The notes beneath the pieces are model-generated. The model was not told where the DNA came from, did not search any database, and worked only from the letters and a program-made list of their open reading frames with translations. Of a stretch of 38,217 nt of DNA, positions 14,403 to 28,592 are shown in pieces. This stretch comes from Eledone cirrhosa (taxonomy: Eukaryota). Where the stretch lies: the NCBI GenBank assembly GCA_964016885.1, contig CAXHJY010000920.1, forward strand, positions 1 to 38,217, given 5' to 3'. How positions within the stretch are numbered: position 1 is the first letter of the stretch; the number at the start of each line of letters is the position of its first letter. Both the position numbers and the translations under genes were made by a program.

Positions 14403-14480
14403 AATTACCTTGCCCGATGAACGAATGAGGACATTTTTCGTAATCGTCTTATTCGGGAAACCTTTGGTAATGAGGTAATT
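14403..14480 (+). ncRNA. Type I hammerhead variant (family C)
   Basis: AAUUACCUUGC-CCGAUGA-A CGAAUGAGGAC...GUCUUAUUCG G-GAAA-CCUUUGG-UA-AUGAGGUAAUU; AAUUACCU/AGGUAAUU is a perfect 8-bp helix. Confidence 0.75.
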
Positions 14481-14609
14481 ATATTGAATTGTTTATTATA
14501 CATTAAACTTAGCTCTGGTACTTACATAGAGCACTCTTCACTCCTATGACTTTCTCAATTTTCAACGGAAACAATATTATATATATATATATATATATAT
14601 ATATATATA

Positions 14610-14657
14610 TATAGAAGGAGCTTCTACAGGACTAGTCCTGTAGAAGCTCCTTCTATA
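14610..14657. repeat. Perfect 48-bp palindrome at the start of a short insertion (to ~14735)
   Basis: TATAGAAGGAGCTTCTACAGGACT|AGTCCTGTAGAAGCTCCTTCTATA, no loop. Confidence 0.95.
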
Positions 14658-14961
14658 AAATAAGAAAATTTTACTCTGCCATGTATTGAGTACCTTACTT
14701 ACTGTGGTTATCCCCGACTCAACCCGGGACCTACGTATATATATATATATATATATATATATGTATATAGATATATAGATATGTATATATATATATATAT
14801 ATATATATATATATATATATATATGTATATATAATGTAGGAGGTGAGTTTTATTGTAGTACAATAAAGCAATGCAGATATCGGATAAGAAGCACTCTACA
14901 GTTAGTGGGACTGGAGTATGCATAATATAAGATCAAAAGATGGTTAAAGGAGTTCAATATA

Positions 14962-15026
14962 TTTTATTATGCGCATTTCAAAAACAAACATCATCAAACA
15001 ATAATATGTGTTTTCATCAGATAAAA
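14962..15026 (-). ncRNA. Type I hammerhead ribozyme (family D), mirror copy
   Basis: Reverse complement of 15151-15217 with a 2-nt deletion in stem II. Confidence 0.8.
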
Positions 15027-15150
15027 CAGGAGAACATGATATGAAGGCTAAAAAACACTTGTTGATAGTGCAGTTTTAAATCAACATATGTTGATTTAAA
15101 ACTGCACTATCAACAAGTGTTTTTTTTAGCCTTCATATCATGTTCTCCTG

Positions 15151-15217
15151 TTTTATCTGATGAAAACACAAATATTATTGTTTGATGATGTTTGTTTTTG
15201 AAATGCGCATAATAAAA
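15151..15217 (+). ncRNA. Type I minimal hammerhead ribozyme (family D)
   Basis: UUUUAU-CUGAUGA-AAACACAAAUAUUAU...AUGAUGUUUGUUUUU-GAAA-UGCGCA-UA-AUAAAA; intact core, palindromic stem III AUGCGCAU. Confidence 0.88.
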
Positions 15218-23876: not shown

Positions 23877-24119
23877 GTGTGTTTACATACAGAATAGCTG
23901 GACACTCACAGTAAAGTGTCCAGTGAAAAACTCGGTACATCTACATATGTACACGTGTGTGTATTCATATGCATACTAGTATTTCAGTATACATATGTGG
24001 ATGTACATTTTTAACTTAATTGTTTAAGCGTCAGTCATACAAAAGTGAGTTACAAACGAAACGAAATTTAATTTCGTTTCGTTATTTGTTTTTATATATA
24101 TATGTATATATATATATAT

Positions 24120-25074
24120 ATTTCGCTGATGATTCCAAGCTCCAAAAGGTCATCAATGGCGTGGATGACCGGATAAGCCTTCAGTCAGACCTACTGGCTG
24201 TTACCCAATGGGCGGAAAAGAACAATATGTTACTGAACGAAGACAAATTCGAACTGATCCACTTTGGAAAAGAGGATGCTCTGAAACTCCCGTACTCCCT
24301 TCCCTCCGGGGAAACTCTCGTGGCATCTAACAGCATCAGAGACTTGGGAGTAACCGTGGACAGCAACATAAGTTGGACCACGCATATAAGCAACAAAGTT
24401 GACATGGCCCGCAGAATGTATTCCTGGATCCTCAGAACCTTCCAGTCGAGAGATTCCCGCACCATTATCCTTCTCTTCTCTACTTTTGCCCGACCACACC
24501 TTGAATACTGTTGTCCACTGTGGTCTCCCCACACGAAACAAAGTATCATGAAACTTGAAGCTCCTCAAAGGGCAATCACGAAAAAGATAGATGGCATGTC
24601 AGACCTTGACTACTGGGGTCGATTAGAAAACCTGAAACTTGAGCGTTATATTATCTGCATGATGTGGAAAATGTTCCATCATCACTGCCCAAATGATGTT
24701 GGCATCGCCTTCAAGATACACCCAAGGCTTGGGCCCCGTGCTATCCGTCCCATTCAAAAATCTAAATCGCAACTCATAACAACAATACGGCACAATTATT
24801 TCACCTCAATCGGCCCTGCTCTCTTCAACATCACACCAGGACACGTCAAAACAGAAACTGACCACACAAAATTCAAGAAGTCTTTGGACAAATTCCTCCA
24901 AGTAATCCCGTACAAACCACCCACACCCGGATATGTCTCCGCAAACAGTAATTCTCTTCTCGAATGGGCCATGGTGCCCAAATCCTGAATTGAAAGACTT
25001 CGCCAGGTGGTGCTATTAAGTTAGACATGGCCTGGCCCAATACTGGCCAAAACATTTCAAAGTTATTCAAAGTT
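24120..25074 (+). mobile_element. 5'-truncated CR1/L2-group LINE; RT C-terminal half (coding 24122-24988), short 3' UTR and TTCAAAGTT-type tail
   Basis: FADDSKL, WAEKNNMLLNEDKFELIHFG, RDLGVTVD, RPHLEYCCPLWSPH, LEAPQR, YWGRLENLKL; uninterrupted frame to the stop at 24988; flanked by (TA)n. Confidence 0.9.
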
Positions 25075-25237
25075 ATATATGTATATATATATATGTATGT
25101 ATATATATATATTTATATGTATATATATATATATGTATATATATATATATGTATATATATATATATGTATATATATATATATGTATACATATATATATAT
25201 ATATATATATATGTATATATGTATATATATATATATA

Positions 25238-25735
25238 TTAAACCCTTAAATATACAAACCTTAACTTAACATTATTCTAAATTTTTCTCTTTGTTAATTT
25301 TCAAATTCTTTTAATTTATATATTATCTTCCAACGGTTTTTCAACCTCTCTATGTAAAACAATATATTTTTCTCAGTTATAAAAGCTATCTCTCTCTCTC
25401 TCTCTATCACCCGTCTCTCCTCCTATCTCATCCTTCCTCATTATACTCAATCCCCTCCACTTTTTACTCTCATCTGCTCCTCTTTTTCATCATTTCAAGC
25501 CCCCACCCCCCTGAAACATTTTTTTTTTCCCAATATCACACATCAATCTAAAACTACTTTTCATATGTTGATTTAAAACTGCACTATTCACAAGTGTGTT
25601 TTAACCTTCATATCATGTCTCCCTATTATATCTGACGAAAACGCAAATGTTATTGCATGATGATATTTGTTTTTGAAATGCGCATAATAAAATACATGGA
25701 ACTCTTTTAACCATCTTTTGATCTTATATATTATG
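25238..25735 (+). mobile_element. Pseudo-LTR/3' UTR fragment of family D
   Basis: 25562-25735 aligns with 15085-15257; upstream part is pyrimidine-rich. Confidence 0.75.
25626..25692 (+). ncRNA. Type I minimal hammerhead ribozyme (family D)
   Basis: UAU-CUGACGA-AAACGCAAAUGUUAUU GCAU GAUGAUAUUUGUUUUU-GAAA-UGCGCA-UA-AUA; stem II differences from 15151 keep pairing (AU to GU, UG to UA). Confidence 0.85.
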
Positions 25736-27495
25736 TATATATATATATATATATATATATATATATATATATATATATATGTATGTATATATATGTATAT
25801 GTATGTATGTATGTATATATATGTATATGTATGTATGTATGTATGTATATATATGTATATGTATGTATGTATGTATATATATATGTATATATATATATAT
25901 GTATGTATGTATGTATGTATATATATGTATATATGTATGTATGTATATATATGTATATATATATGTATGTATATATATGTATATATATATATGTATGTAT
26001 ATATATATGTATATATATATATGTATGTATATATATGTATATATATATATGTATGTATATATATGTATATATATATATGTATGTATATATATGTATATAT
26101 ATATATGTATGTATATATATGTATATATATATATATGTATGTATATATATATATATGTATGTATGTATATGTATGTATATATATGTATATATATATATAT
26201 ATATATATGTATGTATGTATTTGTATATATATATATATGTATATATATATATATATATATATGTATGTATGTATATGTATATATATATATATGTATATAT
26301 ATATATATATATATATATGTATGTATGTATATGTATATATATATATATGTATGTATATGTATATATATATATATGTATGTATATGTATATATATATATAT
26401 ATATGTATATGTATGTATATGTATGTATATGTATATGTATGTATATGTATGTATATGTATATATATATATATATGTATGTATATGTATATATATATATAT
26501 ATGTATGTATATGTATATATATATATATGTATGTATATGTATATATATGTATATGTATATATATATATATGTATATATATGTATATGTATATATATATAT
26601 GTATATATATATATATGTATATATATATATATGTATATATGTATATATATATATATGTATATATATATATATGTATATATATATTTGTATGTATATGTAT
26701 ATATATGCATATGTATATATATATATATGTATGTATATGTATGTATATATATATGTATGTATATGTATATATATATATATGTATATATATATATATGTAT
26801 GTATATGTATATGTATATATATATATGTATATATGTATATATATATATATATATGTATATATATATATATATATGTATGTATATGTATATATATATATGT
26901 ATGTATATGTATATATATATATGTATATATGTATATATGTATATATGTATATATATATATATATATGTATGTATATGTATATATATATATGTATGTATAT
27001 ATATATATGTATATAGGAACCAGTAAGACCCCTAAGTATTGAGTACTTCGGTGCGTTATGGTCCACCTGGTTCCTCACCACATTTCCTTCGGTATATGTA
27101 TATATATATATGTATATATATATATATATATATATGTATATATATATGTATATGTATATATATATGTATATGTATATATATATGTATATGTATATATATA
27201 TGTATATGTATATATATATGTATATGTATATATATATATATATGTATATGTATATGTATATATATATATATATGTATATATATATATATATGTATATATA
27301 TATATGTATATATATATATGTATATATATATATATATATGTATATATATATATATATATATGTATATATATATATATATATATGTATATATATATGTATA
27401 TATATATGTATATATATATGTATATATATATATATGTATATATATATGTATATATATATATATGTATAAAAATATATATATATATATATATATAT
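25736..27495. repeat. Imperfect (TA)n/(TATG)n array containing an 80-bp family B fragment at 27013-27092
   Basis: TATGTATG-rich repeats. The insert CTAAGTATTGAGTAC...CATTTCCTTC is the reverse complement of ~11265-11324, preceded by an oppositely oriented ATAGGAACCAGTAAGACCC piece. Confidence 0.93.
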
Positions 27496-28592
27496 GTGGC
27501 ATATATAATAGCGGGACAATACTAGGTCCTACTGTTATATTACATTTGCATGGAGCAGTGACTTGAAAGTCTGACTCCTCTTATAGAACGTTCAGATATG
27601 ACACCCCTTAATTAATGGATGGTAATCATCCTAATATATACACCCTTGTACTTCTTAATGGACAACTCTCTAACCTATAAATGGGTAACATACTCTAGAT
27701 ATTAGTTATAACTTCACATGATAGGCACGTATTTGAATCACCATTAATGTAGTTTAGGATAGTAATGTAACTAAGATAACTAGCTAGTTACCTCCCCTTA
27801 CGCATTAATTCCCCTTAGTCATTCAGGCACTTCCGGAATCTGGACAGCATGATATATTAATTAGGAACCGACTGGATACGGTTTATAGTTTGACTATATG
27901 CTGAACCACCGCGAATTATACGATAGACGCGTGTTCTCTATATATATTGCGTCTCATGGATTATGTGAGTGGTGGTGTGAGCAAGGACAATGGTACGGCC
28001 TTGCCTACGATACAATAAGGTTTATAGTATGTTGAAAGTTTTTGATATTTTGGTGTTTCCCCGCATCCGAGACTGTATATCATACAGATGTATGAGAATA
28101 AATGACTTAATAATTCAGCCTACATAATAAGATCGATCGCCTGCTTCAACTGCCTGACCCTGCAAATATCATTCTGACGCACTCTAATCATGTATAGATA
28201 AGACACGCGTGCATGCTGCACGGGAGATTGTTTCATACACTGACTACTCTAAGCTTTCCTCTTGCTTTATCTTCATAGACTGCCAACGCTTCATGTTTAT
28301 CTTTATTTTCACTCTTATGTTCACCCTTGCTTTTATTTTATTTTATTTTATTTTATTTTTATTTTTATCCTGTAACCTTTATATGTAAATTGCCATGCTA
28401 TATCATTTGATGAATGTCACCCCACTGTTGATCAATATGCGCATATGTTTTATGTGTCTCTTGGGTTGAAAAGGAGGTCAATTATGTTATAGATCAGTAA
28501 ATAGCTGCTCCGAAGAATCCAAACCTCGGTTTGGAGGAAACAATTGTAAGCAAATAAATGACTTAAACTGAACTTTGATTACTGTAATCCAT
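27496..28592 (+). mobile_element. ORF-less PLE 3' UTR/pseudo-LTR-like segment (family H)
   Basis: Same layout as the main PLE 3' end: complex UTR, ATTTT tract (28331-28365), hammerhead-like motif, then (TA)n. Confidence 0.6.
28506..28552 (+). ncRNA. Type I hammerhead variant (family H)
   Basis: UGCU-CCGAAGA-A UCCAAACC UC GGUUUGGA G-GAAA-CAAUUG-UA-AGCA; palindromic stem III ACAAUUGU. Confidence 0.78.

Follow-up and report, generated by a model that had tools for sequence, protein, structure and literature searches.

A cytidine at position 4 in hammerhead motifs of two Hydra-clade Penelope-like retrotransposon lineages of Eledone cirrhosa

Introduction

Position 4 of the hammerhead core, a uridine, is counted among the invariant residues of the ribozyme. 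We describe here hammerhead motifs with cytidine at that position (C4), carried by two retrotransposon lineages, termed C and H, in a stretch of Eledone cirrhosa DNA. The stretch, referred to below as the window, is the whole of contig CAXHJY010000920.1 (38,217 nucleotides; assembly GCA_964016885.1), one contig of a 3.0-Gb genome assembled in 1796 contigs. Residues are numbered by the standard hammerhead scheme. Judged by their sequences, the host elements C and H are two Hydra-clade lineages of Penelope-like retrotransposons (PLEs).

The closest described relatives are the hammerheads of Hydra-clade PLEs (PMC8557442). They share with C and H the clade, the location in a terminal repeat, the type I layout, a stem III of 2-4 bp or a palindrome in its place, and insertion in (TA)n. 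The position closing stem II (10.1·11.1) is often unpaired there, as here. The present motifs differ in that all 25 families listed in that work have U4 and none has A·G at the closing position, and the H unit is 4.7 kb where those elements are typically smaller than 3 kb. The minimal hammerheads of metazoan PLEs (PMC4209133) are alike in being type I with a weak or palindromic helix III and a long helix II, in the dimer model proposed for them, and in having a non-Watson-Crick nucleotide after A9. In their consensus a conserved G10.1-C11.1 pair comes after CUGANGAH, whereas the C and H motifs have C4 and a one-to-one A·G mismatch; the core variant reported in that source is U3-A8.

The same U4C substitution is found in a viroid hammerhead (Ambros and Flores 1998, cited in PMC3088659) that was much less active in vitro and sufficient in vivo. 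There it is a single variant, whereas here it belongs to a minimal type I motif and forms the consensus in subfamilies of retrotransposons that number hundreds to thousands of genomic copies. The Poseidon element PAc of Anolis (PMC11167929) is similar in having a hammerhead at the junction between the pseudo-long terminal repeat (pseudo-LTR) and the open reading frame, two 3' termini (a 'tail') and a model of protein-assisted cleavage. It is from another PLE clade, and its activity was measured, whereas that of the C and H motifs is predicted. What is new here is family-wide C4, in a core that four H subfamilies otherwise keep unchanged; to our knowledge it was previously described only as a weakened viroid variant. 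Neither the ribozyme nor the element represents a new class.

Three C4 motifs in the window

The lineage C motif at 14403-14480 (+ strand), of the C4 subfamily, was identified by sequence, descriptor and constrained folding as a minimal type I hammerhead. C3 lies at 14414, C4 at 14415, A10.1 at 14421, G11.1 at 14456 and A17 at 14469. Stem I has 11 bp, stem II has about 10 bp and is closed by A10.1·G11.1, and stem III has 3 bp with a triloop; cleavage is predicted 3' of A17. Its inverted twin from the same insertion lies at 11558-11635 on the - strand (sequence, descriptor and blastn), with C3 at 11624, C4 at 11623, A10.1 at 11617, G11.1 at 11582 and A17 at 11569, again with a predicted cut 3' of A17. 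The lineage H motif at 28505-28553 (+), also minimal type I and found by sequence, descriptor and constrained folding, belongs to the youngest (A·G) subfamily. Here C3 is at 28510, C4 at 28511, A10.1 at 28517, G11.1 at 28536 and A17, 3' of which the cut is predicted, at 28548. Stem I has 4-5 bp and stem II 7 bp, and an 8-nt palindrome replaces stem III.

An initial annotation, made from the sequence alone, had placed C4 and A10.1-G11.1 at these three positions (28506-28552 for the H motif), and the coordinates bear it out. The window gave three matches to a descriptor with stem checks; 100 dinucleotide shuffles, done block-wise, gave none. The twin ends of the lineage C copies (11533-11967 and 14505-14061) are inverted and 93% identical. 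The two C motifs are thus the ends of one insertion, and the window holds two independent cases rather than three.

On constrained folding the C and H motifs form a three-way junction of stems I, II and III with the ends in stem I, and C3, G5, A6, G8, A9, G12, A13, A14, A15.1-U16.1 and H17 are all present. All three copies have C4 in place of the U4 of a canonical type I hammerhead, and we therefore class them as a hammerhead variant and not as canonical members. Position 10.1·11.1 is A·G, and no alternative register restores a pair. If the register is shifted and the A is taken for the extra nucleotide already described, no pair results in C, and the reading fails for an H subfamily with C·C. 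The form with an extra nucleotide after A9 followed by G10.1-C11.1 (Cervera 2014) is thus not that of C and H; it does exist in another family of this genome, in which 94 of 100 copies are U4. The annotation had also described stems I-III as paired. Stems I and II and the short or palindromic stem III can form, but the predicted lowest-energy fold of the lineage C copies is not the hammerhead: in it, the end of stem II is base-paired to the core strand. For the copy with C3 at 14414 this alternative is predicted at -22.2 kcal/mol, against -17.3 kcal/mol for the hammerhead. In contigs of four runs aligned over 28400-28590, position 28517 carries A>C and position 28536 carries G>A, with no change listed at 28511; two of these runs are possibly the window's own source and two have a depth below 9, and they are not used as support.

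C4 is a subfamily consensus

The C4 motifs represent the consensus of their subfamilies. Among the best 30 loci per family, C4 together with A·G is present in 30/30 for C and 30/30 for H, although these are best hits and hence a biased sample. A lineage H pattern that fixed the young stem II and left position 4, N7, 10.1 and 11.1 free matched 4771 copies, with none in the control. The non-C4 version of the pattern gave 94 matches, 90 of which fit the narrower pattern (hand count), so that about 98% of the 4771 copies have C4. Older H subfamilies were retrieved by a search with flanks alone (1922 matches, 150 in the control). They retain C4 in 57/57 copies with a C·U consensus at the closing position and in 20/23 with a U-A consensus, counted over 80 of the first 100 matches listed (10 were non-members and about 10 were not fetched). 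H matches from a pattern forcing a purine at 10.2 are mutants at that position and were not used as consensus states.

A flank-anchored pattern for lineage C gave 2334 matches and none in the control. Among the first 100 listed, 42 have C4 and 58 have U4 (hand count); in the first 30, scored by script, there are 13 C4 and 17 U4, with A·G in all 30. The family consensus thus has C4 in every H subfamily sampled, whereas lineage C is mixed. The loci with C4 in 30/30 for each family and the figure of about 98% in H rule out decay of individual copies, as the annotation had suggested. A loose genome-wide descriptor gave 17,213 matches against 8,437 in the control and was too noisy for counting. The persistence of C4 in the face of CpG decay was dropped as a proof of selection, because by hand count C>T explains only 59 of the 94 non-C4 copies, the others being C>A in 22 and C>G in 13.

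C4 is not tied to the A·G mismatch

The two changes had been proposed to be linked and compensating. An obligate linkage is rejected, since each change occurs alone in successful subfamilies. In lineage C the commoner state is U4 with A·G, as in the 58 of 100 and 17 of 30 copies counted above. Another pattern gave 2792 matches against 197 in the control, and 79 of its first 100 matches listed are lineage C copies with U4 and A·G (hand count). In lineage H, C4 is accompanied by a variety of closing positions: among the first 100 matches listed of the 4771, A·G accounts for 84, C·A for 12, C·C for 3 and A·A for 1, and the consensus pairs of the older subfamilies are C·U and U-A, both with C4. 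The oldest H subfamily consensus combines C4 with a Watson-Crick U-A pair. A tree of 39 H flanking sequences takes the form of a ladder with the A·G subfamily at its tip.

The recurrence of the combination in both families does stand, the C4 + A·G state having been reached separately in two lineages according to reverse transcriptase (RT) trees. No third family with C4 and A·G was found among the candidate families, viral contigs and metagenome loci. A family with GGGT-ACCC stems (1750 matches) was rejected as a third C4 family, being U4 with A·A, with C4 in 3 of the first 100 listed. Candidate L079 is without stem I, the L080 motif (C4 with A·C) is a single copy among 9 matches, and L183 is a satellite. 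The viral contigs gave at least 120 pattern matches, of which 4 passed a loose stem filter and none was convincing. These sequences show that C4 and A·G are not tied to each other, and C4 is likely a tolerated variant rather than a compensated subtype.

The host elements

The lineage C insertion as a whole spans 11530-14606. It consists of a 5'-truncated element on the - strand (11530-14060), with RT/endonuclease remnants (12469-14060) and a 3' end with its hammerhead, and an inverted copy of the 3' end (pseudo-LTR) on the + strand at 14071-14606, which holds the 14403-14480 motif. Both parts terminate in (TA)n; the former was delimited by blastn and tblastn against the C elements L064 and L065 and the H protein, the latter by sequence comparison. 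Sequence comparison also defined the lineage H element at 27500-28597 (+), which is 5'-truncated to its 3' untranslated part, terminates in (TA)n and is 93% identical to a tandem full-length unit in L061. There the tandem H units are 4697 bp long, share 99.9% identity and contain one RT frame and one GIY-YIG frame apiece, and the motif lies about 250 nt upstream of the RT frame. The lineage C copies adjoin frames homologous to those of H, pieces of RT being 35% and 43% identical and the whole 39% identical over 444 aligned residues.

The hallmarks given for the Hydra clade in PMC8557442 are RWK, DKT in place of DKG, a CxCX5C linker, and CxxC and CxH near the end. The H protein carries RWR, DKT, CxCX5C, CxxC and CxH, and lineage C proteins carry RWK, DKT, CxCX5C (L066) and CxxC (L064); CxH was not seen in two broken lineage C copies. 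A single RT with a GIY-YIG endonuclease at the C-terminal end is present, in a frame of 734 amino acids in L063. PF01541 matches the C-terminal part of H with E = 0.0017, under the curated cut-off, and lineage C copies match that part by tblastn. Insertion in (TA)n and the tandem or inverted arrangement with pseudo-LTRs are those of the Hydra clade, and the position of the motif in the PLE terminal repeat, with its weak or palindromic helix III, is that of minimal PLE hammerheads. Beyond the motif there are two preferred 3' termini, at about 45-60 and 211-217 bases in H and at 34 and 112 bases in C (30 loci each). Non-LTR retrozymes are ruled out, as the units of 2.5 kb (L065) and 4.7 kb (L061) encode RT and are not short non-coding tandem repeats. 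The named database homologues of the H protein are labelled as cephalopod. The annotation had regarded C and H as unrelated families. No stem sequence is common to both, but the shared Hydra-clade motifs, the 3' ends and the 39% RT identity indicate that the elements are homologous and the families related.

Some further features of these elements were observed. The 3' untranslated region of lineage H is unusually long (about 1.9 kb, L061 4415-6350) with an internal 158-bp direct repeat, that of lineage C being about 0.4 kb. In L022 (about 2095-2170) an H copy is folded back at the stem II loop into a perfect palindrome, its core replaced by the complement of the 3' side, and similar fold-backs turn up among other genome-wide pattern matches. 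A remnant of a further Hydra-clade element, about 71% identical to lineage C, lies at 3052-3570 (-) in the window. Long perfect inverted repeats stand beside (TA)n tracts at 11360-11450, 14600-14650 and 15473-15551 and are probably fold-back ends of other insertions; Rfam microRNA matches there are under the gathering score and spurious.

Separate changes at position 4 and an apparently relaxed closing pair

Element G, at 15558-20596 (+; blastn/tblastn and RT tree), provides a comparison within the window. It has direct repeats at 15558-15964 and 20179-20596 (96% identical), RT/endonuclease remnants at 16125-18174, and hammerheads at 15782-15819 and 20414-20451 in which U4 is canonical and G·U occupies the closing position. 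Like C and H, it shows Hydra-clade protein motifs. Its RT is 60% identical to that of H, and all trees place the two elements as sisters (support 92/97 to 100). The trees comprise sequences of this genome, metagenome loci and database homologues only. The U4 subfamilies of lineage C are 87-93% identical in RT to its C4 subfamily. A single clade of the five C4 rows in a 16-row tree is rejected (p-AU 7e-29, approximately unbiased test), and with U4 in G, the sister of H, a single inherited origin of the variant is rejected also. On these sequences, U4 in G and in the siblings of C together with the rejected clade require that position 4 changed at least twice. Outgroups indicate a change from U to C in lineage H. 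The direction was probably the same in lineage C, where the most divergent copies are U4; reversion or recombination is possible in that lineage.

The metagenome set comprises 78 related loci, from the best 80 of 367. The hammerheads found beside RT are all U4; 22 loci were motif-less at first and one more motif was found later. In one metagenome contig, a hammerhead-like motif that combines C4 with U·U at the closing position occurs as a single copy, on the strand opposite to RT (L116 2427-2464, -).

At the closing position, File S2 of Craig et al. 2021 (PMC8557442) lists U·U in 14 and U·C in 1 of 25 Hydra families, all 25 being U4 (hand count). The 32 metagenome motifs, not all independent, comprise 14 U·U, 12 G-C, 3 G·U, 2 A-U and 1 C·A. 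Position 10.1·11.1 is thus open in 15/25 published Hydra families and 15/32 metagenome loci, and A·G occurs in none of those 25 families or 32 motifs. An unpaired 10.1·11.1 is ordinary in the Hydra clade and already in print, and the position appears to be relaxed clade-wide.

Signs of constraint on the core and a hotspot in stem II

Between the four H subfamily consensuses, 0/11 core columns differ compared with 39/106 flank columns (Fisher p = 0.015). N7 and H17 vary among them, as expected for a hammerhead. Pairing holds for 94.8% of stem cells among 10 C sequences and for 89% among 12 H sequences, one of which is misaligned; 3 pairs in C and 1 pair in H are changed on both sides. These values lie far above slid controls. 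Variants of the H palindrome remain self-complementary or wobble-paired. Given the relatedness of the sequences, this support is modest.

The 5' base of stem II is a strand-biased mutation hotspot in lineage H (L213-L242, L273-L332; window 28517-28519) that was not seen in lineage C. Position 10.2 departs from the subfamily consensus in 40/110 copies, compared with 1/110 at its partner 11.2 (p 6e-13), and position 10.1 in 32/110, compared with 0 at its partner, a part of this being subfamily structure. The alleles are many and different, and the background at invariant T columns is 1-11%. Of the inverted pairs, 15 carry a change by hand count; it is common to both twins in 7 pairs and not in the other 8, which points to errors made during retrotransposition, although twins are not independent. 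U10.2, variable as it is in copies, is the consensus in all four H subfamilies, and this suggests selection on the 10.2-11.2 pair in propagating H elements. The hotspot may bear on the unexplained variability of PLE hammerheads reported in 2014 (PMC4209133).

Motif searches and other hammerhead-like families

Rfam models returned no hammerhead family at E up to 10 for the C or H motif. The U4 sister motif was likewise unmatched, so that the blank is not caused by C4 or A·G and is uninformative about C4. In an Rfam search of the whole window there was no hammerhead among 150 of 563 matches listed. The expectation that standard searches would miss the motif therefore holds for descriptors that fix CUGA, but the Rfam result does not speak for it. 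The published PLE descriptors consulted do fix CUGA, and with them whole C4 families, thousands of copies here, would be missed from counts. A catalogue of 2017 by Lunse reportedly holds about 150,000 PLE-linked hammerhead variants. It could include C4 cases and lies outside the literature search, which found U4C hammerheads only in PMC3088659 (Perreault 2011) and, for CCGA-type cores, nothing relevant. There is no CCGA hammerhead core in the supplement text searched, that of PMC8557442 and one of the two files of PMC4209133, the figures of which are not text.

At least four more hammerhead-like families are present in the window, at 15157-15211 (+), 14968-15020 (-), 25632-25686 (+), 23245-23318 (+), 29716-29761 (+), 35351-35377 (+) and 37635-37661 (-). 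The copy at 29716-29761 has U3·G8, its relatives having C3, and those at 35351-35377 and 37635-37661 have a U3-A8 type core.

Discussion

The explanation we lean towards, as the probable one, is that C4 and A·G arose separately as tolerated changes to a weak, dimer- or protein-assisted ribozyme cutting after GUA. By analogy, the RNA of the element would fold a hammerhead at each terminal repeat and be cleaved following GUA, a second copy or the element's protein helping the weak ribozyme to cut. PLE hammerheads are described as weak and dimeric (PMC4209133), and the anole Poseidon hammerhead cut only with its protein (PMC11167929). The H palindrome would suit the dimer model of Cervera and De la Pena, and the predicted H dimer also pairs via stem II. 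C4 would lower activity without abolishing it, as in the viroid variant, which was less active in vitro and permitted infectivity (PMC3088659), and its tolerance may follow from the slow and assisted action of these ribozymes in any case. Position 10.1·11.1 would drift, being relaxed across the clade and, in H, lying at a mutation hotspot. More speculatively, a protonated C may replace U at the turn of the backbone, which is sharp between U4 and G5 in the hammerhead (PMC11300833); protonated C stands in for U in a riboswitch U-turn (PMC4105743). We think it rather unlikely that C4 goes further and makes a fully working alternative core, for example through such a protonated cytidine at the U4-G5 turn, usable once G10.1-C11.1 is lost. 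The Hydra clade would then have made repeated switches, with cleavage dependent on pH or gated by protein.

Tolerance with continued cleavage has several points against it. Pairwise mutagenesis of a type III hammerhead left all single and double mutants of the CUGA turn with low activity except the C3-G8 swap (PMC9901934). Poseidon insertion in vitro did not need hammerhead cleavage (PMC11167929), so mobility of the C4 families is no proof that they cut. The core test is based on only four related consensuses, and kinship alone, without structure, can beat the shuffle control in the stem pairing test. The direction of change at position 4 in lineage C is unsettled, two trees nesting a U4 subfamily among its C4 copies. 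The first of these points, with the mutants unrescued, is also what would be expected if the C4 motifs no longer cut and the fold were retained for a structural or protein-binding role close to where reverse transcription begins, position 4 drifting because cleavage is dispensable. Insertion in vitro without cleavage points the same way, as do the absence of reads ending at the cut site for the anole element (PMC11167929), the spread of Naiad elements without canonical hammerheads (PMC8557442), and the hundreds of copies reached by U4 and C4 subfamilies of lineage C alike. Yet four H subfamilies, with flanks that differ at 37% of columns, all retain the catalytic residues G8 and G12, the C3-G8 pair, A15.1-U16.1 and a UH that can be cleaved (position 17 being C or A), and at family level position 4 is only ever U or C and never a purine. 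We regard loss of cleavage as a minor but real possibility.

A further reading gives C4 and G11.1 an attenuating role. They would strengthen an alternative helix, between the core strand and the 3' arm of stem II, and keep the ribozyme off until a protein or partner RNA refolds it. In lineage C, C4 adds 1.1-2.1 kcal/mol to the predicted cost of opening the core in 6/6 sequences. The predicted probability that position 4 is paired to stem II or G12 is 0.40-0.92 in the three C4 sequences, compared with 0.01-0.05 in three natural U4 sequences; given C4, only 1/32 metagenome motifs would pair in this way. The total cost of 0.6-4.9 kcal/mol is however within the range of U4 motifs (median 2.9, with 21/32 above 2), and the values for lineage H are inconsistent, at 0.18 for the window copy, 0.98 for L061 and 0.01 for the C·A subfamily. 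With two lineages and folding predictions as its basis, we find attenuation distinctly unlikely. Very improbable, finally, is the proposal of a conserved subtype defined by mutual compensation between C4 and A10.1·G11.1. It could appeal to the combination having been reached in two lineages and characterizing the H subfamily that is youngest and most abundant (84 among the first 100 listed, terminal in the tree). It could appeal as well to the failure to find a C4 family closed by G-C, the one G-C family checked being 94/100 U4. The occurrence of each change alone in successful subfamilies already contradicts it as an obligate link. The family with U4 and A·A (1750 matches, 3 of the first 100 listed C4), the Watson-Crick U-A pair beside C4 in the oldest H consensus and the lack of a third C4 + A·G family also speak against it.

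The genome itself provides a natural experiment. In lineage C, sibling subfamilies with 87-93% RT identity have the A·G stem in common but not the residue at position 4, and in lineage H the ladder of subfamilies keeps C4 and varies the closing pair. The activities of these siblings and subfamilies would bear directly on whether the hammerheads of Penelope elements need to cut at all.

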